Counted from the first letter of the stretch, positions 10,963 through 60,831 are shown. The stretch is DNA of 64,000 nt from Candidatus Bathyarchaeia archaeon (GCA_038882955.1 JAVZNC010000002.1:203691-267690); one strand, 5' to 3'. Program-made: numbers and translations. Notes: generated by a model from the sequence alone, not told the origin.

Positions 10963-10965
10963 ATG

Positions 10966-12249: not shown

Positions 12250-12810
12250 ATGCGCGTATTTAAGAGTAAAAGGGGATTGAGCGTAGTAGTTACAACGTTG
12301 ATAATACTGGTCGTCTCAGTGTTGTTAGCGACCGTCGTGACGTTTTACGCAATCAACGTTACAACAACGAGGGTTCAAGAGGAAAGTCTTCAGATATTCA
12401 AATTGCACATATGGCACAATGGAACAACATTTTCCGAAGCAGCGTTCTTGATAATCAACACTGGTGGACGCGACTTAGTAATTGACAAGATAGCTGTTAG
12501 GGGTCAAGAGTGCCAATGGAGTAACGTTTACTATAACAAAACCGAGGATACTATAAACGAAGATTTGCCCTACATTATTCCACACGAAAATGGCACGCTC
12601 ATCGGTATGGTTGTGGATCTGTCGTCTGAGGACTACAGTTTGCAGCAAGCCAGTGATGACTTAATCTTGCGGTCTGGTTGGAGCATGATAGTTTACATAG
12701 TTAATCCAGATCACGTTTCAGTAAGCGACATTGGTGTTACAATTGGCATAACAGTGTTTACGGCTAATGCGCAATATTACAAGGAATCCAATGTTGAGGC
12801 AGCGCACTAG
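12250..12810 (+). CDS. Type IV pilin-like (class III signal peptide) protein.
   Basis: The N-terminus is MRVFKSKRGLS/VVVTTLIILVVSVLLATVV: a short basic leader, then a Gly-containing cleavage region, then a hydrophobic helix. Several N-x-S/T sequons are present. Confidence 0.6.
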   Translation: MRVFKSKRGLSVVVTTLIILVVSVLLATVVTFYAINVTTTRVQEESLQIFKLHIWHNGTTFSEAAFLIINTGGRDLVIDKIAVRGQECQWSNVYYNKTEDTINEDLPYIIPHENGTLIGMVVDLSSEDYSLQQASDDLILRSGWSMIVYIVNPDHVSVSDIGVTIGITVFTANAQYYKESNVEAAH

Positions 12811-12835
12811 CTACGCCTTCTTTTTCAATTATAAG

Positions 12836-19525: not shown

Positions 19526-19558
19526 TGCTTTTGTTAGTCTTCGGAAGGTGTGAAAAAG

Positions 19559-21337
19559 ATGTTGAACTCGGTAGAACTTTCAGCTCGTGAATTAGGAATG
19601 CTCAAGTTAATGGTGGACTTCTTCGCCGAAAAACCAGAGTTAACAGCAAAAATAGAAAGTTACACAACAGCCCACTATGCCTTACTGACAACGTACTCTG
19701 AAAACTTTGGCATACCCATAGAAGATTCTCTAAAGGCTTTTGAAGAGCTAAGGAAGAAGTTGATGGATGCCGAGTACGTCCATGTGAAAGCGCCAGAACC
19801 CATAAAGAAACTTTTGCCCTTAACACGCGATGAACTTAATATGCTGCGCGTTCTCGCTGACTATTTCTCCGAGAGTCCAAAAATGGCTCCTGCTGGGGCT
19901 TTCCTCTCTAGGAAAGAAGACGCTTTAGTTGAGACGTATTTATGGTTTTACGGAAACAGTGAAGGCAACGGCGAAGTAGCGAGGGAAACTCTCAAAAACC
20001 TAGTTGAGAAACTCCAAACGGCAGTTTTCGTCAAAGTGGATACATTGGCTCCTATTGCGGTTGCGCCAAACCCTTACGAAGCCGCCCTTAAACAGCTAGA
20101 CGTGGCTGTCGAAAAACTGAATCTTGACCCGGGCATACACGAAATATTAAAGCGTCCAATGCGTACCCTCATCGTTAACATTCCAGTAGTCATGGACGAC
20201 GGCAGCATTCAAGTTTTCACCGGATACCGCGTGCAATACAATGACGCTTTGGGTCCAACAAAGGGCGGCATAAGATACCATCCAGACCTAACCCTGGACG
20301 AAGTCACAGCCCTAGCCGCTTGGATGACGTGGAAAACAGCCGTAACAGGTTTGCCTCTTGGCGGAGGCAAAGGTGGAATCAGATGCAATCCTAAGGAGAT
20401 GTCAAGGGCAGAGCTTGAGCGCCTCACAAGAGGATATGTACGTGCCATAGCAAAGTTCATAGGACCCTTCACGGACGTGCCTGCCCCAGATGTGTACACA
20501 ACTGCGGAAATGATGGCTTGGATAATGGACGAATACAGTGAAATAGTCGGTTATCCAGTTTTCGGCGTGGTGACTGGAAAACCTGTTCATGTTGGCGGTT
20601 CTCATGGAAGAAGCGAGGCTACATCAAGGGGACTCATGTACACAGTTGTCGAGGCAGCCAAACATCTCGGAATAAATCTCAAGGGTGCAACAGTTGCAGT
20701 GCAAGGATATGGAAACGTAGGCTATCATGCGGCACGCCTGCTACATGAAATCGGATGCAAAATAATCGCGGTTTCAGACTCTAAAGGTGGCGTTTATAAC
20801 CCAGAAGGTTTGGACCCGGAAAAAGTTCTTGTTCACAAGGAGAAAACTGGTTCGGTGGTTGAATACCCTGGCAGCACTTTCATAACAAATGAGCAATTGT
20901 TAGAACTAGAATGCGACATCTTGGTTCCAGCGGCGTTGGAAAACCAAATAACAAAGGAAAACGCTGCAAACATAAAAGCGAAAATCGTTGCAGAAGGGGC
21001 TAACGGACCTACAACTCCAGAGGCGGATGAAATTCTGTTCAAAAAAGGCGTTTTCGTAATCCCCGACATTCTCGCCAACTCCGGCGGAGTGATTGTCAGC
21101 TACTTTGAACAAGTGCAAAATCAAATGAACTATTACTGGACTGAAGAAGAGGTTAGGAATAAACTGAAGGAAACAATAACCAAAGCTTTCCACGATGTGC
21201 TCAAAATGTCAAAACAGTACAATGTGAACATGCGCACAGCAGCCTACATGTTGGCCGTAAAAAGAGTGGCAGACGCGCTTGTAGCCAGAAAGGGCACAAC
21301 GTTCAGCCCCATCGTACCACCATTAACACCAAGTTAA
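19559..21337 (+). CDS. Glutamate dehydrogenase paralog with a ~170-aa N-terminal tandem-repeat extension.
   Basis: The C-terminal ~420 aa carry all GDH motifs (GGIRYHP, PLGGGKGG, VQGYGNVG, EGANGPTTPEAD). The N-terminus holds two ~80-aa repeats. The SD-like GGAAGGTG lies 8 nt before the ATG at 19559. An alternative GTG start is at 19550. Confidence 0.85.
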   Translation: MLNSVELSARELGMLKLMVDFFAEKPELTAKIESYTTAHYALLTTYSENFGIPIEDSLKAFEELRKKLMDAEYVHVKAPEPIKKLLPLTRDELNMLRVLADYFSESPKMAPAGAFLSRKEDALVETYLWFYGNSEGNGEVARETLKNLVEKLQTAVFVKVDTLAPIAVAPNPYEAALKQLDVAVEKLNLDPGIHEILKRPMRTLIVNIPVVMDDGSIQVFTGYRVQYNDALGPTKGGIRYHPDLTLDEVTALAAWMTWKTAVTGLPLGGGKGGIRCNPKEMSRAELERLTRGYVRAIAKFIGPFTDVPAPDVYTTAEMMAWIMDEYSEIVGYPVFGVVTGKPVHVGGSHGRSEATSRGLMYTVVEAAKHLGINLKGATVAVQGYGNVGYHAARLLHEIGCKIIAVSDSKGGVYNPEGLDPEKVLVHKEKTGSVVEYPGSTFITNEQLLELECDILVPAALENQITKENAANIKAKIVAEGANGPTTPEADEILFKKGVFVIPDILANSGGVIVSYFEQVQNQMNYYWTEEEVRNKLKETITKAFHDVLKMSKQYNVNMRTAAYMLAVKRVADALVARKGTTFSPIVPPLTPS

Positions 21338-21432: not shown

Positions 21433-23391
21433 ATGTCCGTACACCTTCACACAACAATAACCAAAAAGACAAACGAGGTACTTGAAGAACTAGCAAAAAC
21501 CTATGGCACAAAAAGCCGCGTTCTCGAAAAAGCCGTAGAAACTCTGCTTAGGGTTGACAAAGTTGGTTCTTGCGATGATTGCACAATAAAAGCAAAAATT
21601 AACGAACAAACCAAACTGAGAGAGGCGCTTGACCTAACATCGGTTAGCAGAAAAAGCCTTGACAGCCTCCTTGAAGTTGCCCTTGGAAACAGAACAGTTG
21701 AAGACTTGATAAGGGAACAAAAAGCAGAGGCAAAGAACATAATCGAGATACTAAAAAGCTCTGTTGCATGGAGGGCTCCATCGACCTTCAAGGAGTTTCT
21801 ACTGGTCCTAGAAGAGATAAAAGGGCTTACAAACCTCTTTGACATTCCATCATACAGCGAAATCGACAGTGTAGCCGTGCTAAGACCCAGAGTCTTTAAA
21901 CGCTTACCCGTAATGGTTGCCTTCCAAATTGCCACAATATTAGAGGGCATAGGCGTAAATTTCGACTTGCGAATTATGGGTGAAGACATAGCCATAAAAA
22001 TGATTCGCCCCGAAATTTACCCATTAAGGAGAAAGGAATTCGGCGAATTCTTGGAGCAACAGATTGAAAAAGAACTAGCAAATGTAACTCCAGGCTTGTT
22101 CAAAAACACACTTATGCTTGTTGGACCAGCCTTCATGAATTGGGCTGAGAAGCATCTTGAGGAACCAGTAACAGAATTGGGCAACTTCATAGAAGATGCA
22201 AGAACCGTTCTCGGCATCGACGAGTTTCCGAGGGAGCCAAAAGATTTTGTTAAGACTATTCTTTCGGCCTTTGTCAAAATGAACTGGTTTAGGCAAGTTA
22301 AAGTTTTAACAGAGAAAGAAGAGAACACCTTAGAACTTGTTTTCCAAGCAACGACAGCTCAAACAGCTCGTTTATCCTTAACAGTACTTTCGATAATGCT
22401 TGCAACACGCGGATGGAAGCTACTGCATCACTCAATTGAACATGCAAACGTGAACATGACAATAAAATACGTAGGCGCAGAAGACCAAAGCATCCTAGAT
22501 CAACTAGCAGAACTCAACCTTTTCCAAATAATAGGAAAACAATTCCTAGATGTTGTTCCAATCCCCCGCGACCTCTTCAACTCCTTCGCTGCAAAAGTAT
22601 ACGAAAGTGACAGACAAAAATTTGAAGAAATATACCGCGCAACAGGAGTCCGCATCTCCAACGCCATCCGCATGCTTGCTCGGGGCGACCCAGAAAAAAT
22701 TGGTAGACTTTCCAAAAACTTTATCATCAAAAGCATCAGCGTGACGCAGCCCGACGCTGAAGTAAGGTTTGTTGACGACGAGCACTTCACCATCATTTTT
22801 AAGCGGATAGACCCCCTTGTAATGAACAGCCAACGCATCTTAATAGAATCCATGTTTAAGGAGCTAGGCTACGAAGTTTCAACAACGACATTCCAGAACC
22901 TACTAAGCTTTAAACTAAAACTTTTGGAAAAGCCAGTTCTAGAACCCTTACCGCGGAAAAAGCTTATGCAAACACTAATCGAAGGAATGTCATGCAACTC
23001 CATCGAAGAAGCTTTCGCCGTTGAAAGAGAACAGTTGGACGCGCTTTTTCCAGAAGACTACCCGTGGACTATCAAAGATGTCGGTGAAAGGCTTATTGAC
23101 ATGTACCGCGAACTCGGCATAGAAGTTGAAATAGAATATTTTGAAGGCGGCTTCACTCTCAAATACAAAAGTTGCCCCTATTACAAACTGGTCAAAACCA
23201 ATCAGAAGACTTGGCTCTGCGGTCTTCGGAAGAAAACACTAGAATACATTATTTCTAGGGTTAGCCACGGCAAAAAGGGGCGAATGAAAATAATAAAATC
23301 TCTGCTCCAGAATGAGCATCCATGCGAATACGCCATATTCCTAACAGGCTTCCTTGAAAAAGAAGAAAAACCAATTGAGACACAAAGCTAG
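21433..23391 (+). CDS. Orphan 652-aa protein with an N-terminal ribbon-helix-helix-like segment and a C-terminal Cys-triad V4R/MOD1-like module. Putative ligand-sensing regulator.
   Basis: The N-terminus VHLHTTITKKTNEVLEELAKTYGTKSRVLEKAVETLL fits a beta-alpha-alpha RHH pattern. The C-terminus is FTLKYKSCPYYKL..WLCGLRKKTLEYII..HPCEYAIFL. I recognise no other family. Confidence 0.4.
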   Translation: MSVHLHTTITKKTNEVLEELAKTYGTKSRVLEKAVETLLRVDKVGSCDDCTIKAKINEQTKLREALDLTSVSRKSLDSLLEVALGNRTVEDLIREQKAEAKNIIEILKSSVAWRAPSTFKEFLLVLEEIKGLTNLFDIPSYSEIDSVAVLRPRVFKRLPVMVAFQIATILEGIGVNFDLRIMGEDIAIKMIRPEIYPLRRKEFGEFLEQQIEKELANVTPGLFKNTLMLVGPAFMNWAEKHLEEPVTELGNFIEDARTVLGIDEFPREPKDFVKTILSAFVKMNWFRQVKVLTEKEENTLELVFQATTAQTARLSLTVLSIMLATRGWKLLHHSIEHANVNMTIKYVGAEDQSILDQLAELNLFQIIGKQFLDVVPIPRDLFNSFAAKVYESDRQKFEEIYRATGVRISNAIRMLARGDPEKIGRLSKNFIIKSISVTQPDAEVRFVDDEHFTIIFKRIDPLVMNSQRILIESMFKELGYEVSTTTFQNLLSFKLKLLEKPVLEPLPRKKLMQTLIEGMSCNSIEEAFAVEREQLDALFPEDYPWTIKDVGERLIDMYRELGIEVEIEYFEGGFTLKYKSCPYYKLVKTNQKTWLCGLRKKTLEYIISRVSHGKKGRMKIIKSLLQNEHPCEYAIFLTGFLEKEEKPIETQS

Positions 23392-33159: not shown

Positions 33160-35271
33160 TTGAAAACAACTGTGCCAAACAAAATTAAGTCAATCCTGTT
33201 CTTATCACTTCTGCTGTCATCAATCCTGTTTACATTTTCATTTTTTCCTTCAGCAAAAGCTGAAACAAAAATCCTCTCTATAAATCCCACTTCTGGGAAT
33301 GTTGGAACAAACGTCACATTAACAGCAAACGTGAGCAATCTAGGCGCGTATAGAATATTGTTCGACGGGAATGAAATTTTAAGCGGAGAAGCCACAGAAA
33401 ACAACATAACAGCAAGCTTTATCATACCGCATGCGCCGCAAGGCGCCCACAACATTACGTTAATTGATGCAATGGGAGAAAACGACACCGGAAGCTTTAC
33501 CATTTTAACGTTTCAGTCGTTTAAGCCTCAAGTTCCAGAGCCTCCAGCACAGCTACAAGAGGGTGCAAGCTTGACAATCACTGTTAATATTACCGGGGGC
33601 TTGGCTAATCACACCTATCCGAAAATTATGGTTCAAGCGCCACGCGAAGACTTGAACTATACCTTGCGAAATGGCGTCAACATCACAACTGATGCTTCTG
33701 GAACCTGCCTCTTTAATGTCACATACCCAGACGATTTCGCGGAAGGCGCAAATACAAACTTCACTGGGTATTATAAGATATTTTTCAATGAAACCTTTGC
33801 AGACTATTTTTTTGTTGGCATTACGAACGCAAGAGCCTATCATAGAGGAGATATCGTCAACATAAAGGCGGTTAACTATCCAGTAAACGGGAACGTCACG
33901 ATTGCAATAAAGTTTGGAAACGAGACAATAGACACTATAACCTACAACGCCACGGATGGAACAGTAAACTATGATTGGCTTGTTCCAAATAACGTGCTTG
34001 TAAGCAACGCAACCCACACCTACAATGTAACCATAACGCCAGTGCCAACAACCAAGAACTTCACAGACACTCAGACATTTGATATTTTAGGCTTTAACAC
34101 GACAGTTTATACGCTTAATCGTGCTGGAAAAAGCGTTTCAGGTGTTTTGGTAAAGGTGCACGATATATCTGCGAATGCCAACTATACAAACAGCAGCGGA
34201 GTAGGCGGATATGCCAATTTTATGCTTGAGATAGGCGATTATACGGCTGAAGCCTACTTCAGGGACGTGAAGGTTGGCGATGGTTTACTGTTCAGCGTTA
34301 CGAGAGATGCTGTGCTAAACTTTTCCTTTACTTGTAACATAACAAGCCTAAACATAATTGTCGAAAATGAGCGTGGCGTGCGCATTCCACGCGTGAACAT
34401 AACGCTCACTTATAATTACACTACAAATTATGGCACGCCAGAAAACAGAACCGCCACAGAATACAATGAAACAAAAATTGATGGGTTAGCCGTTTTTCCA
34501 GCAGTACTTCCCAACGTAACATGCGTGGTGAATGCTTCACTTTATGGGCTAGTTTTTAACATTGGCAACAACACCATTCCCGATTTACCAGTCGCCGAAT
34601 GCGTTAACGTGATGGTTCTTTATCCAACCAGAAGGCTTAACATTCAAGTTTTAGATGTAAACAACCAGCCAATTCCATCGGCAACATTGAAAGCCCAAGA
34701 GCTAACCGTTGGATTGTTTACTGAAGGAGATGTTGTTAACGGAAATGCCACCTTAAACTGCACTTTCGGAAGATACTCTGTCAAAATTTTCTTTAGCGAT
34801 ATACTCTTAAATGAAACGGTGTTTGATTTAACTTCTGGCGATGTTGAATTTAATGTAACAATCAAATGTCAGCTTTACGGCTTAAACATAGCAGTCAAAG
34901 TTGTCGATTACTTTGGTCAACCAATATCTGGTGCCAACGTAATATTGCATCGCGGTTTGTTACAAGACGCTAAACAGACAGATTCAGGGGGCACAGTCAC
35001 GTTCGCAAATGCCGTTGGCGGAGAAATACAAATAAACGTCTATATGCCAGGGCATTCAGAACCATGTGTCACCAAGAATTTTAATGTTGGAGTTTCAACG
35101 GTGCTTACCATCAAGATTGATAGATATGTTGTTCTAGCTGGCTTTCTTGTGGAGACGGGATGCTTGGCTACTGCAATGATAATTGTCATAACAGCTCTAG
35201 TCATAATAGTCTTGGAAGTTTATAGGAGAAAGCGTTTCAAGCGTCAAGAGGCTAAAGAGGAGCAGAAATAA
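33160..35271 (+). CDS. Heavily N-glycosylation-sequon-rich secreted surface (S-layer-like) protein with a C-terminal TM anchor.
   Basis: Signal peptide ..FFPSAKA/ETK. I counted about 34 N-x-S/T sequons by hand in 703 aa. There are four carboxypeptidase-regulatory-like beta-sandwich repeats in the C-terminal half. The C-terminus is VLAGFLVETGCLATAMIIVITALVIIVLEVYRRKRFKR. TTG start. Confidence 0.6.
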   Translation: MKTTVPNKIKSILFLSLLLSSILFTFSFFPSAKAETKILSINPTSGNVGTNVTLTANVSNLGAYRILFDGNEILSGEATENNITASFIIPHAPQGAHNITLIDAMGENDTGSFTILTFQSFKPQVPEPPAQLQEGASLTITVNITGGLANHTYPKIMVQAPREDLNYTLRNGVNITTDASGTCLFNVTYPDDFAEGANTNFTGYYKIFFNETFADYFFVGITNARAYHRGDIVNIKAVNYPVNGNVTIAIKFGNETIDTITYNATDGTVNYDWLVPNNVLVSNATHTYNVTITPVPTTKNFTDTQTFDILGFNTTVYTLNRAGKSVSGVLVKVHDISANANYTNSSGVGGYANFMLEIGDYTAEAYFRDVKVGDGLLFSVTRDAVLNFSFTCNITSLNIIVENERGVRIPRVNITLTYNYTTNYGTPENRTATEYNETKIDGLAVFPAVLPNVTCVVNASLYGLVFNIGNNTIPDLPVAECVNVMVLYPTRRLNIQVLDVNNQPIPSATLKAQELTVGLFTEGDVVNGNATLNCTFGRYSVKIFFSDILLNETVFDLTSGDVEFNVTIKCQLYGLNIAVKVVDYFGQPISGANVILHRGLLQDAKQTDSGGTVTFANAVGGEIQINVYMPGHSEPCVTKNFNVGVSTVLTIKIDRYVVLAGFLVETGCLATAMIIVITALVIIVLEVYRRKRFKRQEAKEEQK

Positions 35272-45166: not shown

Positions 45167-46567
45167 TTAAACGTAAAGATACTTCTGCAACTCCCAAGAC
45201 GTTACATGCTCTTCGATTCCAGAAGCGTGCTTTTCGTATTCCCTCCACTCTTGCATCTTCAGCTCAAAATATTTCTCAGAGTTTTCCCTGCCTAAAGCAC
45301 GTACACAAACTTCGTCGCTTTTCCATTCTTCTAGCGCCTCTTTGAGTGAAGATGGCAAAACCTTTATGCCCAACTCTTTTCGTCGGGACTCGCTTAAACG
45401 GTAGACATTCATTTCAACTGGTTCTCCAGGGTCAATCTTTCTCTTAATTCCATCCATTCCAGCCTCCAAAACCACCGCGTAGGTGAGGTAAGGGTTACAA
45501 AGCGGGTCTGGACATCTGAATTCTATTCTTGCCTCGTTTTCTTTTCCTGGAAAATACTCTGGCACTCTTATCAGTGACGAGCGGTTTCTTTTGCTCCATG
45601 TGACATAAACTGGGGCTTCATAGCCTGGCACAAGCCTCTTGTAACTGTTTACGGTTGGGGCTACTATTGCGCATAAAGCTCTTGCATGTTCAAGTAAGCC
45701 GCCTATAAAGTATCGGCATTTCTGTGAAATGTTCGCGTAGCCTTTACCATCATAGAAAATGTTTGTTCCATTTTTCGCGTCAAAAATGCCAATGTGAATG
45801 TGCATACCGCTTCCAGGCTTTCCAAACCACGGCTTTGGCATGAACGTCGCAGTCCACCCATATTTCTTTTCAGCCACGGCTTTTGCCGCAAGTTTGTAGC
45901 GCATTATGTTATCAGAAGTTGTCAGCGGGTCTGAATATTTGAATGTAATCTCGTTTTGAGCAGACCCAGCTTCGTGGTGTTGGCGTTCGACGGTTATTCC
46001 CATTATGCTTAGGGTGTTGGATAGTTCCATGCGGTACTGTTCCGTAAAGTCTCTATTTGGGGCTATGTCAAAGTATCTATGTTTATCTATCAAGTTATTT
46101 TCAACAGGGCAAATTTCGTCTTTCTCGTCTTTCTGTACTAGGTAGAACTCTATTTCCGCGGCTGCCGTAGGCTTATAGCCTTCGCTTAAAGCCTTTTCCA
46201 TTGCCTTCTGGCATATGTATCGGGAATCGCCTTCAAAACGTTTGCCATCTGGTCTGTAGATGTCGCATATGAAGATTGCAACGCTTTTTTCGTAAAAGTA
46301 GTATGGACAAACCGTAAATGTTGTTGGGTCGGGCTTCATAATCATGTCGCTTTCTTCTATGCCGACGCCGCCTATTATTGAGGAACCGTCGAAGCCTACT
46401 CCTTCTTTTAGGGCGTTTTCGCCTTCTTCTGCCGGGATTGTTCTGCCCTTAAGATACCCCAAAATATCCGTAAAGTGTAAGAGTACGTAATCAGCGTTCT
46501 TCATAAGCCTAATACATAAATCAAACTTTTTAGCGTGGTTCTCTTCTGCGTATAGCATGGCTTTCAC
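45167..46567 (-). CDS. glnA: Glutamine synthetase type I.
   Basis: FDGSSI, KPWFGKPGSGMHIH, and NRSSLIRVP. Confidence 0.95.
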   Translation of the reverse strand: MKAMLYAEENHAKKFDLCIRLMKNADYVLLHFTDILGYLKGRTIPAEEGENALKEGVGFDGSSIIGGVGIEESDMIMKPDPTTFTVCPYYFYEKSVAIFICDIYRPDGKRFEGDSRYICQKAMEKALSEGYKPTAAAEIEFYLVQKDEKDEICPVENNLIDKHRYFDIAPNRDFTEQYRMELSNTLSIMGITVERQHHEAGSAQNEITFKYSDPLTTSDNIMRYKLAAKAVAEKKYGWTATFMPKPWFGKPGSGMHIHIGIFDAKNGTNIFYDGKGYANISQKCRYFIGGLLEHARALCAIVAPTVNSYKRLVPGYEAPVYVTWSKRNRSSLIRVPEYFPGKENEARIEFRCPDPLCNPYLTYAVVLEAGMDGIKRKIDPGEPVEMNVYRLSESRRKELGIKVLPSSLKEALEEWKSDEVCVRALGRENSEKYFELKMQEWREYEKHASGIEEHVTSWELQKYLYV

Positions 46568-50000: not shown

Positions 50001-50093
50001 CGGGCGGGGTGGGATTTGAACCCACGACCACAAGCTTTCTTCTGGCTTATGGTTTAGGAGGCTTGCGCCCTATCCATGCTAGGCTACCCGCCC
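50001..50093 (-). tRNA. tRNA-Arg (anticodon CCT) with an ~18-nt intron at the canonical 37/38 position.
   Basis: The reverse complement folds with acceptor GGGCGGG/CCCGCCC, D stem GCCT/GGGC and anticodon stem CAAGC/GCTTG. That stem encloses 25 nt, CTCCTA[AACCATAAGCCAGAAGAA]A. T arm is GTGGG-TTCAAAT-CCCAC. The intron spans about 50037-50054. Confidence 0.8.
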
Positions 50094-52947: not shown

Positions 52948-53985
52948 TTATTCAAGGCTATCTATGTAATTGCGTATGTCCTCGGTTGCAGCTGAAGGAA
53001 TTGGCAAGTCTTTCATTGTCAATAACCCTGGGCGTGCCTTAATCACCTTTGGAATTGCATTTGCAACCATCGCGACGGTTCCTATGTCACCGTGGATGCA
53101 TGGTTGTATTTTTTGCCTTATTTCTGGGACTCCTTCAATTGTTATGGCGTCATACTCTTCTTCAGCGCCTAGATAAGCTTGGAACTCAAGCGTTATTACT
53201 TCTTTGTTCTTCATCATCCCTTTAGCCTTTTGTTTCAAACCTGCCACATCGCCAGCCTTAACTTCTATAAATTGACTTTTTACTGGTTTTTTGGCAATGA
53301 CCGGTTCAACCTGTTCGGCTATGATTTTATCTAGTTTCCATGCAAGGGCGTCAGCAAACATTGCTATGGATTGTTCAAGCCCCACATGTCCAGTGATCTG
53401 TTTGCTTTCCATTTTTTGCCTAAATTCTTCCACGGTTAGTCCAGCACCTATCTTTTTTTGGAATGGTAATCGCCTTTTTGTCGCATCCATAACCCTTGCT
53501 GCTTCTATTTTTTCGATTTTCTGGCAAACCGCCGTTAACATTATGACAAGCGTGTCCATCAAGAAGCCCGGGTTAATGCCCGTACCAAGCACCGTAGTGT
53601 TGTATTTTTTGGCTAGGGCGTCTAATTTTTTTGCAAGTTTTGGCTCAGTGTAGTATGGATAAGTCAATTCTTCACACGTGGATATCACTTTTAAGCCGTT
53701 TTTTACAAGTGAAGCTATTTGCGGGTACGTATCTTTAAGATAGGATGATGTTGCGTGTATTGCCAAATCCGCTCTAACCTTAGATAGGGCTTCATCAACG
53801 TCCTTTGAAATTTTTATTCCAAGACTTTTTGGCGCTCCTAATACTTCGCTCAAGTCTTTGCCCACCTTATCTTTCGCAACGTCTACGGCTCCAACGATTT
53901 CTACGCCATCCTTTTCCAATAGAAATTTGGCGATTAACGTTCCAACTGCGCCAACGCCGAATAGGATAACCCTTACTTTGCGCAT
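52948..53985 (-). CDS. DapB-N-domain NAD(P)H-dependent amine dehydrogenase-family protein (2,4-diaminopentanoate dehydrogenase-like).
   Basis: VILFGVGAVGTLIAKFL Rossmann motif, GTGINPGF, and HGD. The start is taken at M26. Confidence 0.55.
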   Translation of the reverse strand: MRKVRVILFGVGAVGTLIAKFLLEKDGVEIVGAVDVAKDKVGKDLSEVLGAPKSLGIKISKDVDEALSKVRADLAIHATSSYLKDTYPQIASLVKNGLKVISTCEELTYPYYTEPKLAKKLDALAKKYNTTVLGTGINPGFLMDTLVIMLTAVCQKIEKIEAARVMDATKRRLPFQKKIGAGLTVEEFRQKMESKQITGHVGLEQSIAMFADALAWKLDKIIAEQVEPVIAKKPVKSQFIEVKAGDVAGLKQKAKGMMKNKEVITLEFQAYLGAEEEYDAITIEGVPEIRQKIQPCIHGDIGTVAMVANAIPKVIKARPGLLTMKDLPIPSAATEDIRNYIDSLE

Positions 53986-54114
53986 GTGTGTTTCACCTTC
54001 TCTTCTCTTCATTGTTTTTAGCTTATAAAATGTGCTTGCAGCATTTGTGGGATAGAGCATTGTTTAGAAACCTTTACATTTGTAAACCTTTATATCCATG
54101 AGAAAACTCAAACT

Positions 54115-55563
54115 ATGAGAGGGCCTCAAGTCTTGGCGACTGCAGAAGCCACGATGCATAAGGAAGAAATCAGAAAGCTTCTGAGCACTGAAAAGCTTAA
54201 GCACTGCTTTGAATGTGGCATTTGCACCGCAAGCTGTTCAATGGTTGAACTGCTTGGAGATGATTATAATCCACGGGGGCTTCTCGAAAAAATTTTCTTA
54301 AATGCGGAAGACGCATTATCTTCGCATGAGCTTTGGCTATGCGCATGGTGTTACAAATGCCATAGGCGATGTCCACAAGCTCTAGAAGTTCCAGAAATCT
54401 TTCTTCTTATGCGAACAATCGCCGTTAAACGCGGCTATATACACCCTCTGGAAAAAGCTATACAAAAAGTTGCACGAAACATCCCATTACCCCTCATAGT
54501 TACACTTGTATGCTTGCATCCAGAGCGTGCTGGACTTAACATACAAGACGTTTTGGAAAAGGTTCAGGATGAACGCACTAAACTGAAAATGAAAAAGACG
54601 CTAAAAGGCAGTAAATGTAAAGTAGCGGTTTTAGGTTCTGGACCAGCAGGTTTAACTGTTGCTTATGAGCTTGTTCGAAAGGGTTATCCAGTAACGGTTT
54701 TTGAGTCTCTTTCAGAGCCCGGGGGAATGCTTAGAAAGTGTATACCGGAGTATCGCTTGCCAAGGGACGTTTTAGAGGATGAATTGCGTTTTTTGGAGAG
54801 TTTAGGTGTTGAGTTTAAAGTTAACGTGCATGTAGGTAAGGACTTGGGTTTTGATGATTTGTGGGATGAAGGTTATAGGGCTATTTTTGTTGGTGTTGGC
54901 GCCCATAAAAGTCAGAAATTGAAGATTGATGGCGGAGACTTGAAGGATGTTGTTCACGCTCTAGATTTTTTGTGGCAGGTTAAAAGCGGCGTGAAAGTTG
55001 AGCTTGGCAAAAACGTTGCAGTTATTGGCGGCGGAAATGTGGCTGTAGATGCCGCCAGAACCGCTTTAAAACTCGGCGCAGAAAATGTGACAATATTCTA
55101 TCGAAGGTCGAGGACTGAAATGCCCGCGAATCCGTGGGAGGTTAAGGAATCAGAGGAAGAAGGCGTAAAAACAGAGTTTTTGGTAGCTCCAAAGAGAATT
55201 TTAGGAGAAAATGGACACGTTTCAGCTGTTGAGTTTGTCCGCATGCAGCTAGGCGAATTGGACGAGTCTGGTAGAAGAAAACCTTTACCAATAGAGGGTT
55301 CAGAGTTTGTTTTCAAAGCGGATACCATTATTTTGGCGATTGGCGAGGCTCCAGACTTAGAGTTTTTACCTAAAGGCATCGTTCTTAATGATGATGGAAC
55401 AGTTTGGGTTAACCCCATAACCATGGAAACAAGTATGCGTGGAGTTTTTGCTGGTGGAGACGTTGTTACTGGTCCAGCATCGGTTATTGAGGCTATTTGC
55501 GCTGGAAAACGTGCCGCCAACTCCATTGACCGCTACCTAAAGGCTGAGGGAGGCATGGGTTGA
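54115..55563 (+). CDS. Fusion protein with an HdrC-like 2x[4Fe-4S] helical domain followed by a GltD/NfnB/SudA-like NAD(P)H:FAD oxidoreductase.
   Basis: N-terminus: CFECGICTASC ... CAWCYKCHRRCP, two CxxCxxCxxxC motifs about 45 aa apart. From aa ~165: VAVLGSGPAGL (FAD), VAVIGGGNVAVDAAR (NAD(P)H), GVFAGGDVVTGP. An alternative start is at 54154. Confidence 0.75.
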   Translation: MRGPQVLATAEATMHKEEIRKLLSTEKLKHCFECGICTASCSMVELLGDDYNPRGLLEKIFLNAEDALSSHELWLCAWCYKCHRRCPQALEVPEIFLLMRTIAVKRGYIHPLEKAIQKVARNIPLPLIVTLVCLHPERAGLNIQDVLEKVQDERTKLKMKKTLKGSKCKVAVLGSGPAGLTVAYELVRKGYPVTVFESLSEPGGMLRKCIPEYRLPRDVLEDELRFLESLGVEFKVNVHVGKDLGFDDLWDEGYRAIFVGVGAHKSQKLKIDGGDLKDVVHALDFLWQVKSGVKVELGKNVAVIGGGNVAVDAARTALKLGAENVTIFYRRSRTEMPANPWEVKESEEEGVKTEFLVAPKRILGENGHVSAVEFVRMQLGELDESGRRKPLPIEGSEFVFKADTIILAIGEAPDLEFLPKGIVLNDDGTVWVNPITMETSMRGVFAGGDVVTGPASVIEAICAGKRAANSIDRYLKAEGGMG

Positions 55564-58001
55564 TGGCTGAAGAAAAGGTGCAGAAACTTGGCGATGTTTC
55601 GGAAGAGGTTCGCATAGGTGTTTATGTTTGCCATTGCGGATTAAACATTGCTGGCTCTGTAGATTGTGAAGAAGTAGCCAAATTCGCCTCTACGCTTCCG
55701 TGTGTTGTTCTTGCCAAGGACTATAGATACACTTGTTCAGATCAAGGGCAAGCCATGATAAAGAACGATGTTAAGGAGCATAGGCTTAACCGTGTTGTTG
55801 TAGCCTCTTGTTCGCCGCGTCTTCATGAACCAACATTCCGCAAGGTTTGCGAAGAAGCTGGGCTAAACAAGTATCTTTTTGAGATGGCGAACATACGTGA
55901 GCATTGCAGTTGGGTTCACTTGTATGATCGTGAGGCTGCCACCGAAAAAGCTAAAGATTTGGTTAAAATGGCTGTTGCAAAGGCTGCTCTGCTTCAACCC
56001 TTTGAGGAAATTGAGGTTCCAATACTTCGAAAGGCGTTAATTATTGGTGGCGGTGTTGCTGGAATTCAAGCTGCCCTAGACCTCGCAGACACTGGTTATG
56101 AGGTTTATCTTGTTGAGAAAGAGCCTAGCATCGGCGGGATGATGGCGCGAATAGACAAGACATTTCCAACAATGGACTGTTCGATCTGCATTCTTGCGCC
56201 CAAGATGTCGGATGTGGGGCATCACCCGAACATTGAACTTTTAACTAACAGCGAAGTCGTAGAGGTGAAAGGCTACATTGGCAATTTTCACGTAAAAATA
56301 CTGAAAAAACCCAGATATGTCACGAAGGACTGTTCTGCATGTGGCGAATGCACAAAAGTTTGTCCAGTCACAGCCCCAAACGAGTTCGACGCAGGCTTAG
56401 CCATGAGACACGCAATTTTCACTCCTTTTGCACAAGCAGTTCCAGCCACTTACATAATAGACATGAACCTCTGCCTCAACAAGGAAGGCATAATCGTCTG
56501 CGACAAATGCATACGAGCATGCGAAAGGCAAGCCATAACCTTTGACATGAAACCAGAAACAGTAGAAATAGACGTTGGCACCATAATCGTGGCGACAGGC
56601 GCAGACGTTTTTGACCCTTCAACATTACCAAATTATGGATACGGGAAATCCCCAAACGTCATAACTTCACTGGAATTTGAAAGACTCATTAACGCTGGCG
56701 GGCCCTCTGGCGGACACCTAATAAGGCCAAGCGACAAGCAAATACCAAAGCGCGTGGCATTCGTCCAATGCGTAGGCTCCCGCTCCAACAGAAGCGAAAG
56801 GCAGTATTGCAGCAACGTCTGCTGCATGAACACTATTAAGGACAGCCTCCTAATCAAAGAACATTGGCCCGAAACAGAAATCTACGTCTCCTATGTTGAC
56901 ATAAGGGCTTATGGCAAGGGATTCGAAGACCTTTACAGACGGGCGAGAGAAGAAGGCGTCAAATTCATACGCGGATTACCCGCAGAAATAATTGAAGATA
57001 AGAAAACGCATAACTTGTGGCTTGTAGGCGAAAATACGCTGCAAAAAGAGCTATACAAAATAAATGTTGACATGGTGATATTGTCGGTTGGCTTGGAACC
57101 GCGAAAAGACAGCGAAATGATACAGCGGCTACTCACCCTCTCCCGAACACAATACGGATTCTTCATGGAGGCGCATCCAAAACTAAGACCAGTGGACGCT
57201 GCAACTGGCGGCATATTTTTTGCCGGATGCGCTGAAGCGCCTAAAGACATAAAAGACAGCGTGACGCAAGCAAGCGCCGCTGCGGCTAGAGCTGGAATTT
57301 TGATGGCTAAGGGCAAAATAGCTGTTGAGGCGATAACGCCTATAACTTTTCCAGAAAAATGCAAAGCTTGTGGACTCTGCACAAAAGTTTGTCCCTACAA
57401 CGCTTTAACTTTAAATAAAGAGTTGAAGCGTGTAGAAGTGATAGAGGCGGCTTGCGGCGGTTGCGGAACATGCGCAGCCGAATGCCCATTCGAAGCCTTA
57501 ACCCAAAAACACTTCACAGACGAACAGATTCTTGCGCAAATAGACGCCGTAACGGAACATGACGCACATAAGAAGATTGTTGCTTTCTGCTGCAACTGGT
57601 GCGCCTATGCGGGCGCGGACTTCGCTGGAGTAAGCAGAATGCAATATCCGCCAAGTGTCCGAATAATAAGAACCATGTGTTCTGGGCGGGTTTCACCAAA
57701 ATTCATTGAAAGAGCCTTTGCAAGGGGCGCTGCAGCGGTGCTTGTTGCTGGTTGTCATCCAGGAGATTGCCATTACATAAACGCCAACTACCAAACGCAG
57801 AAGCGTGTGGATCGCTTCTGGAAAAGAATGGAACAGCTAGGATTGAATAAGGAGAGACTTCAACTTTTGTGGGCTTCTGCGGCGGAAGGCGAAAGAATTG
57901 CCTCAAAAATTCGTGAGATGCACAAGATGATAGAGAGCATTCCGTTTGAAGAAATAGAACGTTCCAAAAAGGCTTTTGAAAAAGCTTTTGGAGGAAATTA
58001 A
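55563..58001 (+). CDS. hdrA: Heterodisulfide reductase subunit A-like flavoprotein fused to a C-terminal MvhD-like domain.
   Basis: VYVCHCGLNIAG; IIGGGVAGIQAALDLA; FPTMDCSICIL; FVQCVGSRS..YCSNVCCM. Ferredoxin motifs CSACGECTKVCP, CKACGLCTKVCP and CGGCGTCAAECP. The C-terminus is FCCNWCAY..MCSGRV..AGCHPGDCHY. The ATG overlaps the upstream stop (TGATG). Confidence 0.85.
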   Translation: MAEEKVQKLGDVSEEVRIGVYVCHCGLNIAGSVDCEEVAKFASTLPCVVLAKDYRYTCSDQGQAMIKNDVKEHRLNRVVVASCSPRLHEPTFRKVCEEAGLNKYLFEMANIREHCSWVHLYDREAATEKAKDLVKMAVAKAALLQPFEEIEVPILRKALIIGGGVAGIQAALDLADTGYEVYLVEKEPSIGGMMARIDKTFPTMDCSICILAPKMSDVGHHPNIELLTNSEVVEVKGYIGNFHVKILKKPRYVTKDCSACGECTKVCPVTAPNEFDAGLAMRHAIFTPFAQAVPATYIIDMNLCLNKEGIIVCDKCIRACERQAITFDMKPETVEIDVGTIIVATGADVFDPSTLPNYGYGKSPNVITSLEFERLINAGGPSGGHLIRPSDKQIPKRVAFVQCVGSRSNRSERQYCSNVCCMNTIKDSLLIKEHWPETEIYVSYVDIRAYGKGFEDLYRRAREEGVKFIRGLPAEIIEDKKTHNLWLVGENTLQKELYKINVDMVILSVGLEPRKDSEMIQRLLTLSRTQYGFFMEAHPKLRPVDAATGGIFFAGCAEAPKDIKDSVTQASAAAARAGILMAKGKIAVEAITPITFPEKCKACGLCTKVCPYNALTLNKELKRVEVIEAACGGCGTCAAECPFEALTQKHFTDEQILAQIDAVTEHDAHKKIVAFCCNWCAYAGADFAGVSRMQYPPSVRIIRTMCSGRVSPKFIERAFARGAAAVLVAGCHPGDCHYINANYQTQKRVDRFWKRMEQLGLNKERLQLLWASAAEGERIASKIREMHKMIESIPFEEIERSKKAFEKAFGGN

Positions 58002-58004
58002 AGC

Positions 58005-58295
58005 ATGCCAGAAAGAATTTGGCGTAAACCCCTTGACAGCGAGAAAGCAAAGCCACTGAAAGCAGAAATTCACATAATTCGCGACCAGTGTAAAGGCTGC
58101 GGCTTCTGCATTCAATACTGCCCCCAAAAAGTTTTGGAAGAATCAAATGATATTAATGCGCGTGGGGTTCACCCGCCAAGGGTTGTTAACGAAAGCAAAT
58201 GTGTTTTGTGCAGTTTTTGCACATCGGTTTGTCCAGATTTCGCCATATTCGTGATCGAAAAGAAGGAGCGAGAAGAAAATGTCAAGCATAATTAA
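58005..58295 (+). CDS. korD: 2-oxoacid:ferredoxin oxidoreductase delta subunit (2x[4Fe-4S] ferredoxin).
   Basis: CKGCGFCIQYCP and CVLCSFCTSVCP. It begins 3 nt after the hdrA stop. Confidence 0.8.
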   Translation: MPERIWRKPLDSEKAKPLKAEIHIIRDQCKGCGFCIQYCPQKVLEESNDINARGVHPPRVVNESKCVLCSFCTSVCPDFAIFVIEKKEREENVKHN

Positions 58296-59442
58296 AAAGA
58301 AGGCCATACTGACGGGCGCCCACTTCATGAACGGCGACTTTGCATGTGCAGAAGGAGCAATAGTAGCGGGCTGCAGATTCTTTGCGGGATACCCTATCAC
58401 TCCAGCAACGGAAATTGCCGAGCGTCTTGCGGAAAGAATGCCAGAAGTAGGCGGAATCTACATTCAAATGGAAGACGAAATTGCATCAATTGCGGCGGTT
58501 ATAGGCGCTTCCTATGCTGGATTAAAAGCCATGACCGCTACTTCTGGGCCGGGCTTTAGCCTAATGCAAGAGAACATCGGTTTGGCTGTTATGACGGAAA
58601 CTCCGTGCGTAATCGTTGATGTTATGCGTGGCGGACCAAGTACGGGACAGCCGACGATGCCGGGGCAGCAGGATGTTATGCAAGCTAAGTGGGGTTCTCA
58701 TGGAGATTACGAAATTATTGCTTTGTCGCCTTCCTCTGTTCAGGAAATGTTTGATTTGACGGTTGAAGCTTTTAACTTGTCCGAGATTTATCGTGTCCCA
58801 ACGATATTGTTGGCTGATGAGGTTGTTGGGCATATGTGGGAAAAAGTGGTTATTCCACCGCCTGAAAATTTGAGAATTGTTAATCGTAAAAAGCCAAATG
58901 TTCCGCCAGAAAAGTATTTTCCATTCATGCCCGACGACGACCTTGTTCCGCCTATGGCATGTTTCGGAGAGGGTTTCGCTTTTCACGCTACTGGTTTGAC
59001 ACATGATGAGCATGGTTACCCGCAAACGCAGAGTTCAGAAGTTCAAGAACGACTTGTTAAGAGGCTCTGCGACAAGATACGAAAGAACGTGGACAAAATA
59101 GTGAAGGTTGAAGAGGTTATGCTTGAGGACGCGGACGTTGTGGTTGTTGCCTACGGCATAGTTGCAAGAGCCGCTTTAAGCGCCGTTAGAAAGGCTAGGG
59201 CAGAGGGCATAAAGGCTGGACTTCTCCGTCCAATCACATTGTGGCCGTTCCCAGAAAAGCATGTAGGAAAAGCCGCGGAAAAAGCGAAGAAAATAGTTGT
59301 TGCAGAAATGAACTGTGGTCAACTCTTACGCGAGGTTCAAAGAGCAGCTAAAGAAACTCCAGTTGTTTTCCTTACGAAACTGGGTGAAGAACCACATACG
59401 CCTATGGAAATTTTGGAGGCAATTAGGAGGAACAATAAATGA
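58279..59442 (+). CDS. korA: 2-oxoacid (likely 2-oxoglutarate):ferredoxin oxidoreductase alpha subunit.
   Basis: NGDFACAEGAIVAGCRFFAGYPITPATEI, TATSGPGFSLM. 387 aa. Confidence 0.85.
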   Translation: MSSIIKKKAILTGAHFMNGDFACAEGAIVAGCRFFAGYPITPATEIAERLAERMPEVGGIYIQMEDEIASIAAVIGASYAGLKAMTATSGPGFSLMQENIGLAVMTETPCVIVDVMRGGPSTGQPTMPGQQDVMQAKWGSHGDYEIIALSPSSVQEMFDLTVEAFNLSEIYRVPTILLADEVVGHMWEKVVIPPPENLRIVNRKKPNVPPEKYFPFMPDDDLVPPMACFGEGFAFHATGLTHDEHGYPQTQSSEVQERLVKRLCDKIRKNVDKIVKVEEVMLEDADVVVVAYGIVARAALSAVRKARAEGIKAGLLRPITLWPFPEKHVGKAAEKAKKIVVAEMNCGQLLREVQRAAKETPVVFLTKLGEEPHTPMEILEAIRRNNK

Positions 59443-60278
59443 CAACGGAGGTTGAACATCCGCTCTCACGGTATTTGCGAAAGGCTATGATGCCTCACAT
59501 ATGGTGTTCTGGATGTGGCAACGGCATAATCCTCAACTGCTTCGTTCACGCAGTGGATGAGCTGCAAATGGACATGGACAAGCTTGTGGTTGTTTCTGGA
59601 ATTGGCTGTATTGGGCGTGCAGCGGGCTACATAAACACAAATTCCTTCCACACAACACACGGTCGCCCAATAGCTTTTGCTACTGGAGTGAAACTTGCTA
59701 ACCCAAACCTTGAAGTAGTCGTCATAAGTGGCGACGGCGACCTCTTCGCAATTGGTGGAAACCACTTCATACATGCAGCGCGGAGAAACATAGGGATAAA
59801 GGTGATCTGCGCAAACAACTTCAATTATGGAATGACTGGTGGACAACAGGGACCAACAACACCACTTGAAGCAATTACAACAACAACGCCTTATGGAAAC
59901 ATTGAGCATCCATTCAACCTTGTTCACCTCGCTGCGGCTTCTGGGGCAACGTATGTGGCCAGGTGGACAACGCTTCATGTGCGCAGGTTGACGCAGTCAA
60001 TTAAGAGGCTCTTGCAGAAGGATGGCTTCGGCTTTATTGAAGTTGTTTCGCCATGTCCCGAAATTTATGGTCGGCACAACAAGATGAGAACTGGACTTGA
60101 AATGATGGAGTGGTTTAGAAGAAGCTCCGTGGTGGAAAACTTTTCCGATCCTGCGAAGGCTGAAATTACTCCGCAAAGGATAGTTGTTGGAGAATTTATG
60201 AACATAGATAAGATAAGTTATGAGAGATTTCTCCATGAGAAGATAGCGCATATAAATGAGGAGAAAATGTGGCGGTGA
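59439..60278 (+). CDS. korB: 2-oxoacid:ferredoxin oxidoreductase beta subunit (TPP/FeS).
   Basis: WCSGCGNGI, SGIGC, GDGD TPP motif. ATGA overlap with korA. Confidence 0.85.
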   Translation: MTTEVEHPLSRYLRKAMMPHIWCSGCGNGIILNCFVHAVDELQMDMDKLVVVSGIGCIGRAAGYINTNSFHTTHGRPIAFATGVKLANPNLEVVVISGDGDLFAIGGNHFIHAARRNIGIKVICANNFNYGMTGGQQGPTTPLEAITTTTPYGNIEHPFNLVHLAAASGATYVARWTTLHVRRLTQSIKRLLQKDGFGFIEVVSPCPEIYGRHNKMRTGLEMMEWFRRSSVVENFSDPAKAEITPQRIVVGEFMNIDKISYERFLHEKIAHINEEKMWR

Positions 60279-60285
60279 TTTAAAT

Positions 60286-60831
60286 ATGCGAGTTGAAGTT
60301 AGATTTGCAGGTTTCGGCGGTCAAGGCATAATAAAATCTGGCATAATTGTGGCGTCAGCTGCATGTATTTACGGCGGAAAAAACGCCGTCCAAACACAGT
60401 CTTATGGTCCAGAATCTAGGGGTGGCGCTTGCAAATCCGAAGTTGTCATAGCCGAAGAGGACATCGATTTTCCCAAAGTTGTTGAACCAGACGTGTTGGT
60501 TGTGATGTCTCAACACGCCTACAACGAGTATGCGGAAAACGTTAAAGCTGGTGGAACAATACTTTTAGATCCAGACATGATCCCCCACGAGAGAGATTTA
60601 CGTGGCGTAAAGGTTTTTCGTGTACCAGCAACGCGAATTGCTGAAGAACTTGGCAGAAAAATTGTTGCCAACATAGTTATGCTTGGCGCTTTTGCGTCAA
60701 TCACCAAACTTATTGATAAGGACGCTGTGAAAAGCGCCATTAAAGACAATGTGCCCAAAGGAACTGAAGAGTTAAATCTCAACGCTTTCGAAATGGGTTA
60801 TAATTATGGAGAAAACCTTCTGAAAAGCTAG
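60286..60831 (+). CDS. korC: 2-oxoacid:ferredoxin oxidoreductase gamma subunit.
   Basis: VRFAGFGGQGIIKSG, QSYGPESRGG. The ATG is 7 nt after the korB stop. Confidence 0.8.
   Translation: MRVEVRFAGFGGQGIIKSGIIVASAACIYGGKNAVQTQSYGPESRGGACKSEVVIAEEDIDFPKVVEPDVLVVMSQHAYNEYAENVKAGGTILLDPDMIPHERDLRGVKVFRVPATRIAEELGRKIVANIVMLGAFASITKLIDKDAVKSAIKDNVPKGTEELNLNAFEMGYNYGENLLKS

Follow-up and report, generated by a model that had tools for sequence, protein, structure and literature searches.

The DNA analysed here, referred to as the window, is a stretch of 64,000 nucleotides from Candidatus Bathyarchaeia archaeon (GCA_038882955.1, JAVZNC010000002.1:203691-267690), and all positions are counted from its first letter. 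ORF calls on the window placed six open reading frames (ORFs) on the + strand, all in one direction, at 54115-60831. Their products are an iron-sulfur flavoprotein of the NAD(P)H-dependent type, an HdrA2 protein with a fused MvhD domain, and the delta, alpha, beta and gamma subunits of a 2-oxoacid:ferredoxin oxidoreductase (OFOR), named KorDABC:

54115-55563, + strand: gene 1, NfnB/GltD-family NAD(P)H iron-sulfur flavoprotein (Pfam, NCBIfam, PDB sequence matches, AlphaFold model)
55563-58001, + strand: gene 2, HdrA2, an HdrA core (residues 14-663) plus an MvhD [2Fe-2S] domain (NCBIfam, Pfam, PDB alignment)
58005-58295, + strand: gene 3, KorD, 2x[4Fe-4S] delta subunit (NCBIfam OGOR_delta, two Pfam Fer4 domains)
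58279-59442, + strand: gene 4, KorA, OFOR alpha subunit (PRK08659, POR_N plus PFOR_II)
59439-60278, + strand: gene 5, KorB, OFOR beta subunit binding thiamine pyrophosphate (TPP) (TPP_enzyme_C, E 1e-33)
60286-60831, + strand: gene 6, KorC, OFOR gamma subunit (PRK08537, Pfam POR; the longest ORF starts at 60256)

The five junctions consist of overlaps or of gaps no longer than 7 nt. Genes 1 and 2 meet in a TGATG at 55561-55565, where the stop codon TGA (55561-55563) runs into the start codon ATG at 55563, and a 3-nt gap (AGC) at 58002-58004 separates gene 2 from gene 3. Genes 3 and 4 overlap by 17 nt at 58279-58295, genes 4 and 5 share an ATGA at 59439-59442, and a 7-nt gap at 60279-60285 precedes the ATG of gene 6 at 60286. 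This ATG was taken as the start of gene 6 because the PRK08537 alignment begins at residue 11 of the longer ORF. A GGAGG-like Shine-Dalgarno sequence lies upstream of every internal start of the block. The six genes are one operon, and it is conserved as one unit among the loci described below.

Gene 2 scored 1260 bits against the NCBIfam HdrA2 model NF040770 (cutoff 1100), and its 812-aa product is 100% identical to the NCBI protein "HdrA2 [Bathyarchaeia]" (P0121). Residues 14-663 align end to end with the HdrA of M. wolfeii (5odc_A, 852 bits) and keep the flavin adenine dinucleotide (FAD) motif GGGVAGIQAA, the DCSIC motif, four CxxCxxCxxxCP motifs and YCSNVCC. The C-terminal domain (residues ~670-793, nt ~57570-57941) matched Pfam FlpD/MvhD at residues 673-793 (E 3.5e-50), and the MvhD chain 5odc_D scored 157 bits against gene 2. 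HdrA2 is under strong constraint, its best 120 homologs being 84-100% identical. Two database proteins related to it are labelled Acidobacteriota (P0184, 86% identical to the Bathyarchaeia protein) and Altiarchaeota (P0471, 80% identical to the Marinifilaceae-type protein); they stand on contigs of 4 and 11 kb, and their labels probably reflect mis-binning and not the real distribution.

Two starts are possible for gene 1, ATG 54115 and TTG 54133; its NCBI counterpart P0001 is identical and 476 aa long. Gene 1 is likewise identical to a protein of a Bathyarchaeia metagenome-assembled genome (MAG), and its best 120 homologs are 65-100% identical. Residues 28-90 (nt ~54196-54384) form an HdrC-like 2x[4Fe-4S] domain with two CxxCxxCxxxC motifs, residues 169-462 (nt ~54619-55500) form the FAD and NAD(P) domains, and Pyr_redox_2 and GltD/NfnB models cover residues ~81-478. 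In Pfam the matches were Pyr_redox_2 (110 bits), Fer4_8 (36 bits) and Fer4_17 (30 bits); Fer4_20, the N-terminal alpha-helical 2x[4Fe-4S] domain, was not detected, and Fer4_8, Fer4_17 and HdrC models matched in its stead. GltD-type NCBIfam models scored 250-355 bits, with PRK12771 (355 bits) and gltA TIGR01316 (314 bits) each under its equivalog cutoff, and the HdrC model TIGR03290 scored 69 bits. A PDB sequence search returned NfnA 9n5u_A, StnC 8oh5_C, NfnI 5jca_L and HdrC 8rvv_C; among solved chains, gene 1 is closest to the NfnB-like parts of NfnABC, StnC and NfnI, and residues 21-118 match the HdrC of solved Hdr complexes (E 4e-16). The eight cysteines (C31/34/37/41 and C76/79/82/86) are invariant in homologs down to 39% identity, and the motifs GSGPAG and GGGNVA.DAA are conserved in gene 1 homologs. 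A FYRRSR segment follows the GGGNVA motif, with acidic residues at this place in distant homologs; we take the segment to resemble the NADPH-type motif of GltD enzymes, and the YRRSR motif suggests NADPH as the nucleotide of gene 1.

An AlphaFold (AF2) model of gene 1 had a predicted local distance difference test score (pLDDT) of 83 and a predicted template modelling score (pTM) of 0.85, with a pLDDT of just 44-79 for residues 1-90. Foldseek aligned it over 420-470 columns with NfnI-L, NfnB and Xfn (matches 5jca_L, 4ylf_B and 6s6s_E; template modelling score [TM] 0.67-0.70, with 0.70 to NfnI-L; E down to 1e-39). Because this alignment runs over 420-470 columns of NfnB-type subunits, the HdrC-like part is probably not an extra, appended domain. 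As modelled, gene 1 has the usual NfnB/GltD/DPD architecture overall, and its N-terminal part is predicted to be the customary dicluster domain of this family with a sequence of the HdrC-like kind. In a library of 1.8 billion proteins, the GltD proteins nearest to gene 1 include many HdrA proteins with an inserted GltD part, MvhD-GltD fusions and GltD-HdrA fusions, a pattern that agrees with the HdrA-NfnB fusions in the literature (PMC9012536, PMC12054007) and ties gene 1 to HdrA. Recruitment of an HdrB through the HdrC-like domain was considered and judged unlikely, since the HdrC match stops at about residue 120 of the 184 residues of HdrC, the C-terminal part of HdrC being the part that contacts HdrB.

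For the Kor subunits, KorD scored 69 bits against OGOR_delta, the delta-subunit model for 2-oxoglutarate:ferredoxin oxidoreductase (OGOR), under the cutoff of 125, and matched Pfam Fer4 twice. Its N-terminal motif RIWRKPLD is common to every Hdr-linked KorD examined, and [YFI]WRxPLD is kept in KorD homologs down to 45% identity. Single ferredoxin units of the HdrA-docking polyferredoxins (9sfi_T, FwdF) scored 25-32 bits per unit against KorD, about level with the 36.6 bits of the true OGOR delta subunit 8ys5_D. KorA scored 597 bits against PRK08659 (cutoff 411), and its closest solved chain is the alpha subunit of the P. furiosus 2-keto acid:ferredoxin oxidoreductase (1yd7_A, 465 bits). KorB reached 273 bits with the OGOR beta model PRK09628 (cutoff 364), and KorC 251 bits with PRK08537 (cutoff 235) and E 2e-38 with Pfam POR. 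The putative substrate of KorDABC is a 2-oxoacid; 2-oxoglutarate specificity is unsupported by cutoff-level scores.

No CCG tripeptide or CCG-domain pattern, as expected for HdrB/HdrD, was found in any ORF of the window, and no separate HdrB or HdrC is encoded with gene 2, where just the HdrC-like domain inside gene 1 was seen. Pfam revealed no hydrogenase, formate dehydrogenase or Flx among the 30 largest other ORFs (ORFs of less than 250 aa were only partly scanned) and no NuoE or NuoF domains in the operon. An NfnA/NfnS partner ([2Fe-2S] plus a second FAD) was found neither in the operon nor in the scanned ORFs of the window. The cluster is not HdrABC (no HdrB), not Nfn (no NfnA) and not Flx-Hdr (no NuoEF-like genes).

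A preliminary description of this DNA, made from the sequence alone, had listed most of these features. Its six tightly joined same-strand genes were recovered when all ORFs and all five junctions were re-read, as were the HdrA hallmarks and MvhD C-terminus of gene 2, the GltD/NfnB-type NAD(P)H flavoprotein of gene 1 and the complete four-subunit OFOR, for which POR_N/PFOR_II, TPP_enzyme_C, POR and two Fer4 domains were all found. One of its statements requires narrowing. Gene 1 had been called an HdrC::GltD fusion; the HdrC-like dicluster sequence is present, but "fusion" overstates a domain that is a usual part of the NfnB-type fold. The window had also been said to lack HdrB/HdrD, hydrogenase, formate dehydrogenase and Flx genes, which holds across all ORFs for the CCG proteins and across the 30 largest other ORFs for the remainder.

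In order to follow the operon across genomes, metagenomes were scanned with HdrA2, which gave 80 loci at 60-92% identity, and the six window proteins were then mapped onto these loci. Fifty-three loci were informative, having enough sequence on both sides of hdrA2. Kor adjoins HdrA2 in 44 of the 53, and the order of the window is kept in 37 of these 44. Across loci, hdrA2 and korD are 1-32 nt apart, and the identities of HdrA2 and KorA to their window counterparts co-vary (r = 0.95, n = 55 loci). Much of this conservation is shared ancestry, since 20-22 of the 33 window-order loci with long flanks share the neighbours of the window (DAPDH-like, MoaE, S3Ae and SerRS genes), and the adjacency might then be meaningless, a synteny inherited within one Bathyarchaeia lineage. 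Such an explanation is very improbable, as it is contradicted by loci in which the surroundings or the order have changed. The six-gene block keeps its order among different neighbours in 11-13 of the 33 loci. The order korDABC-gene1-hdrA2 occurs in two loci (L142, L143) and, with bacterial flanking genes, in a Marinifilaceae bacterium (L165; Bacteroidota, GCA_041725895.1). Three loci (L153, L156 and L164) have korDABC-hdrA2-hdrC-hdrB, with a real HdrC and a CCG-domain HdrB in the place of gene 1; L164 is the cultured Desulfomonile tiedjei DSM 6799 (Desulfobacterota, CP003360.1 2092-20533), a sulfate reducer and dehalogenator, where the cluster lies at ~6.8-14 kb, near dnaN/gyrB. In L160, kor genes are followed by mvhD, an HdrC/B fusion and hdrA. 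Because rearranged and cross-phylum versions exist, the association of HdrA2 with Kor in three gene orders, with varied flanks, in both Archaea and Bacteria argues strongly for a functional coupling of the two. Conserved synteny, which the preliminary description had proposed to look for, is thus found beyond loci with shared flanks.

The same HdrA2 clade also occurs in other settings. In L111 (2576-12510), HdrA2 and a KorD-like ferredoxin lie between cdhAB and cdhCDE of a carbon monoxide dehydrogenase/acetyl-CoA synthase (CODH/ACS) operon; this ferredoxin shares with gene 3 57% identity and the N-terminal motif RIWRxPLD, and neither gene 1 nor KorABC was found within 5-8 kb. Loci without Kor likewise retain a polyferredoxin gene immediately behind hdrA2, which together with L111 favours a tie between KorD and HdrA2. 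NuoE-, NuoF- and NuoG-like genes come after HdrA2 in L127. L101 has korD behind hdrA2 and the remaining kor genes on the opposite strand, and in L094 a TfrB-like CCG protein is convergent with korC. Gene 1 and HdrA2 almost certainly work together, and in our reading HdrA2 would be a modular hub.

We propose, with a probability of roughly 0.5, that the operon encodes a redox machine of three modules, assembled on HdrA2 as its hub. KorDABC would be the ferredoxin-potential module (2-oxoacid + CoA <-> acyl-CoA + CO2), gene 1 would be the NAD(P)+/NAD(P)H module, and HdrA2 would join Kor and gene 1 via its FAD, its [4Fe-4S] clusters and the fused MvhD [2Fe-2S] cluster. We infer the physical complex, its docking sites, the direction of the reaction and any bifurcation from the sequences. 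Standard potentials are approximately -500 mV for 2-oxoacid/acyl-CoA + CO2, -320 mV for NAD(P), approximately -350 mV for F420 and -414 mV for H2. Thermodynamics would therefore put Kor at the ferredoxin-level port of HdrA2, into which it could be plugged by KorD, a two-cluster unit like the methanogen polyferredoxin units that dock to HdrA. Gene 1 would use its HdrC-like dicluster to dock at the HdrC position. At the high-potential end, NAD(P)+ probably substitutes for the heterodisulfide, because the dicluster of gene 1 is HdrC-like and because HdrCB replace gene 1 in Desulfomonile-type clusters; the potential of CoM-S-S-CoB, -281 mV, is close to that of NAD(P) (PMC13518236). The preliminary description had found the high-potential third partner not evident, and no CCG protein is indeed present in the window, but by these arguments NAD(P)+ may itself be the stand-in. 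In amino-acid and peptide catabolism, electrons would pass from the 2-oxoacid through Kor, KorD, HdrA2 and gene 1 to NAD(P)+, and the simplest reaction would be 2-oxoacid + CoA + NAD(P)+ -> acyl-CoA + CO2 + NAD(P)H via HdrA2. Of the three redox partners expected at a bifurcating flavin, the operon encodes two substrate-level couples, 2-oxoacid and NAD(P). The MvhD (mid-potential) port would be left over, and the flavin could couple the drop of ~180 mV to a third carrier such as ferredoxin, F420 or a hydrogenase. Operated backwards, the chain could drive reductive carboxylation.

Several points weigh against this proposal. Kor is a frequent but optional partner of HdrA2, because gene 1-HdrA2 pairs occur without it: in L137, L140 and L154 a polyferredoxin of 320-330 residues directly follows hdrA2 and Kor is absent. 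A contig profile search with the gene 1 alignment used general patterns, and the matches listed were mostly ordinary bacterial GltD genes; among the matches listed, bacterial loci with an HdrC-like-GltD protein and HdrA (L007, L023, L046 and L074, from Dehalococcoidia, Desulfobacteraceae and Saprospiraceae) are without Kor. Similarity to HdrA2 was the basis for picking the metagenome loci, and the figure of 44 in 53 is therefore biased to one clade. The OGOR-specific alpha, beta and delta models all fell below cutoff, and it is generic 2-oxoacid models (alpha, gamma) that pass. The single argument for docking of gene 1 at the HdrC site is the likeness of a domain that NfnB/GltD proteins have anyway, and in other lineages GltD modules attach at the ferredoxin port or to MvhD. 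The downhill transfer from 2-oxoacid to NAD(P)+ needs no HdrA, which suggests that a third reaction is missing from the scheme. Finally, four-subunit OFORs are self-sufficient and normally use free ferredoxin.

One alternative has no Hdr-Kor complex at all; in it, two self-contained enzymes are co-expressed and meet via the soluble ferredoxin pool. KorDABC would reduce ferredoxin, and HdrA2 with gene 1 would re-oxidise it with NAD(P)+ in an Nfn-like balancing reaction that possibly involves F420 too. This would fit the presence of all four standard subunits in KorDABC, the gene 1-HdrA2 pairs that have polyferredoxin or NuoEF-like neighbours and no Kor, and the ability of HdrA2B2C2 to work with free ferredoxin in vitro (PMC5296606). 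We nevertheless regard it as rather unlikely. The linkage survives three rearrangements and an inter-domain transfer with co-varying divergence, korD abuts hdrA2, and a KorD-like gene stays by hdrA2 where KorABC is missing (L111) or is encoded on the other strand (L101); co-regulation alone would still be compatible with all of these findings.

A different wiring, along the lines of the preliminary description, we consider improbable. NAD(P)H would be the mid-potential donor, entering via the MvhD side as in Flx-Hdr, and the HdrA flavin would bifurcate its electrons, the low-potential one going to reductive carboxylation by Kor acting as a 2-oxoacid synthase and the high-potential one to an acceptor encoded elsewhere (HdrBC plus a disulfide). 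MvhD is often an adaptor for GltD modules, as the MvhD-GltD fusions P0321 and P0248 show, and two loci (L134 and L139) combine gene 1, an MvhD::HdrD-like fusion upstream of hdrA2, and HdrA2. CO2-fixing enzymes are hard-wired to HdrA in methanogens, and HdrA2 lies inside the CODH/ACS operon in L111. A possible acceptor set is seen in L126 (7-2189), a Bathyarchaeia-like contig on which hdrA (fragment), mvhD, hdrC and hdrB stand as an independent group 1.5 kb upstream of gene1-hdrA2-korDABC, but the HdrB of this group is accompanied by its own HdrA. The window itself has no CCG protein, and the dicluster of gene 1 resembles HdrC and not a partner of the MvhG/FlxC type. In Desulfomonile-type clusters, furthermore, HdrCB stand in the place of gene 1 and there is no NAD(P)H module, so that Kor is the sole substrate-level partner there.

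An extension of our three-module proposal is possible, if doubtful: KorDABC, HdrA2 and gene 1 might form one hard-wired complex in which the OFOR is a direct module of the bifurcating HdrA flavin and which confurcates in the catabolic direction. The two electron pairs that glutamate and amino-acid oxidation yields, one in NAD(P)H (-320 mV) and one from the 2-oxoacid (~-500 mV), would then be merged into a mid-potential carrier that leaves via the MvhD port. The product could be F420H2 for the tetrahydromethanopterin (H4MPT) Wood-Ljungdahl pathway, or H2, and would suit an amino-acid fermenter; on paper, the energetics favour merging NAD(P)H and 2-oxoacid electrons into either carrier. In reverse, 2-oxoglutarate and NADPH would be made together for glutamate synthesis. 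F420H2 as a donor for forward bifurcation to NAD(P)+ and Kor was ruled out on the potentials (2 x -350 against -320 and -500 mV); with F420H2, just the reverse, confurcating direction is favourable.

The proposed machine shares parts with several known systems and comes nearest to the Hdr super-assemblies with a CO2-reducing enzyme, to HdrA2B2C2 and to the HdrA-NfnB fusions. Super-assemblies of Mvh/Fdh-HdrABC with Fmd/Fwd (5ODC, 7BKB; PMC13518236) have the same FAD and cysteine motifs in the HdrA core and the MvhD adaptor, and their polyferredoxins hard-wire HdrA to the CO2-reducing Fwd. In them, as proposed for the window cluster, a low-potential CO2-handling enzyme is linked via 2x[4Fe-4S] ferredoxin units. 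The window cluster differs from them in having no HdrB/CCG protein, hydrogenase or formate dehydrogenase and presumably no heterodisulfide chemistry; its ferredoxin-level enzyme is a TPP-dependent OFOR instead of formylmethanofuran dehydrogenase, and it has an NAD(P)H flavoprotein in addition. The HdrA2B2C2 enzyme from Methanosarcina acetivorans is of the same HdrA2 subtype with fused MvhD and accepts electrons from ferredoxin or F420H2, those of ferredoxin reportedly stemming from a low-potential decarboxylating enzyme, and its reported ferredoxin:heterodisulfide activity (PMC5296606) parallels the proposed flow from Kor to NAD(P)+. In the window, by contrast, an NfnB/GltD-type protein is found instead of HdrB2C2, and the Kor genes are in the same operon.

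In fold and motifs, gene 1 agrees with the NADPH-binding large subunit of NfnAB/NfnSL, NfnABC and StnABC (4YLF, 5JCA, 9BOV, 9N5U, 8OH5). Unlike in Nfn, its partner would be HdrA2 and not NfnA/NfnS, and its dicluster is HdrC-like, with Fer4_20 undetected. HdrA is likewise paired with a GltD-type NAD(P)H module in HdrA proteins that carry an inserted NfnB/GltD domain, namely type III HdrA, HdrA9-11 of ANME-1 (anaerobic methanotrophic archaea) and A10 of Bathyarchaeota; Kor association is not reported for these fusions in the two studies concerned (PMC12054007, PMC9012536). In the window, the two are separate polypeptides, the GltD part has its own dicluster, HdrA has MvhD, and Kor is linked. An HdrA-type flavoprotein is also combined with a pyridine-nucleotide module in FlxABCD-HdrABC and in the class II benzoyl-CoA reductase BamB-I, and the mechanism proposed for Bam has ferredoxin-level electrons as donor and NAD+ as high-potential acceptor. 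The NAD(H) modules of Flx and Bam are NuoEF-like, not GltD-like, and neither system is known to contain an OFOR.

An OFOR is coupled to a pyridine nucleotide via an extra flavoprotein in the NAD+-dependent phenylglyoxylate dehydrogenase PadEFGHI and, as it seems, in L015, neither of which has HdrA. The latter, from a Candidatus Fraserbacteria MAG (9177-13583), has the gene order gamma, GltD-like Fe-S flavoprotein (551 aa), alpha, beta, and looks like an NAD(P)-linked OFOR without HdrA that has the flavoprotein in the usual position of delta. An assignment of KorDABC itself as a Pad enzyme was rejected, KorA scoring just 81 bits against PadG (cutoff 700).

Full-text literature searches found no description of a Kor-HdrA2 cluster or of an Hdr-KOR complex, although an earlier description is still possible; the preliminary description had likewise known of no such complex. 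The parts belong to known families, and their combination, probably an uncharacterised machine, is a widespread and well-supported gene-cluster association, with most sampled HdrA2 loci carrying the Kor cluster. Bathyarchaeia belong to the most abundant archaea of anoxic sediments, and what is known of their energy metabolism comes from genomes only. If the modules are coupled, a 2-oxoacid enzyme would join the few partners on record for Hdr-type bifurcating flavoproteins, NAD(P)+ could stand in for the heterodisulfide, and amino-acid fermenters would have a mechanism to dispose of NAD(P)H, or OFORs one that drives them towards CO2 fixation. A hard-wired complex would represent a new class among flavin-based bifurcating enzymes, common to Bathyarchaeia and Bacteroidota, and Desulfomonile would have its sister of the heterodisulfide type. 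With this sister cluster, the cultured D. tiedjei DSM 6799 opens the Kor-HdrA2 idea to direct experiment.

Upstream of the operon, two further features were recorded:

54061-54114, between gene 1 and the divergent gene: divergent intergenic region of 54 bp, read from the sequence
52948-54060, - strand: divergent neighbour of gene 1, with a 2,4-diaminopentanoate dehydrogenase (DAPDH) C-terminal domain (DAP_DH_C, 187 bits)

The intergenic region is a candidate bidirectional archaeal promoter. Its positions 54089-54095 read TTTATAT/ATATAAA and form a TATA-like element, which precedes ATG 54115 by ~23-26 nt; ~32 nt separate the element from the divergent gene's start at 54060. A near-perfect direct repeat, AAACCTTTACAT (54068-54079) and AAACCTTTATAT (54084-54095), has the TATA-like element within its second copy and may be a shared regulatory site (54068-54095). 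The divergent gene is predicted to encode an NAD(P)-dependent dehydrogenase of amino-acid catabolism; DapB_N is annotated on its counterpart in L001, where a DAPDH-like gene is adjacent, and such a gene lies upstream of the block in 22 of the 33 window-order loci. On the other side, the next gene downstream, for ribosomal protein S3Ae (- strand), ends 1 base past the korC stop codon.

Elsewhere in the window, glutamate metabolism is represented by two genes of the glutamate dehydrogenase family (15591-16850, - strand; 19550-21337, + strand), a weak GltB-like match (Glu_synthase; 16924-18540, - strand) and a glutamine synthetase gene (45167-46567, - strand). Enzymes of these kinds produce or consume 2-oxoglutarate and NAD(P)H. 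The two glutamate dehydrogenases would supply both compounds, a context that speaks for the three-module proposal; in the 595-aa ORF of this family, the glutamate dehydrogenase domains begin at residue 203, and either an N-terminal extension or an over-long ORF call would account for this. Four large ORFs of 847, 355, 652 and 703 aa, at 1451-3994 (+), 5702-6769 (-), 21433-23391 (+) and 33160-35271 (+), were without a Pfam match at E <= 1e-10. A tRNA of 93 nt was recognized at 50001-50093 (- strand) by Rfam (55.8 bits), with none reported there by ARAGORN, and it may be an intron-containing archaeal tRNA.

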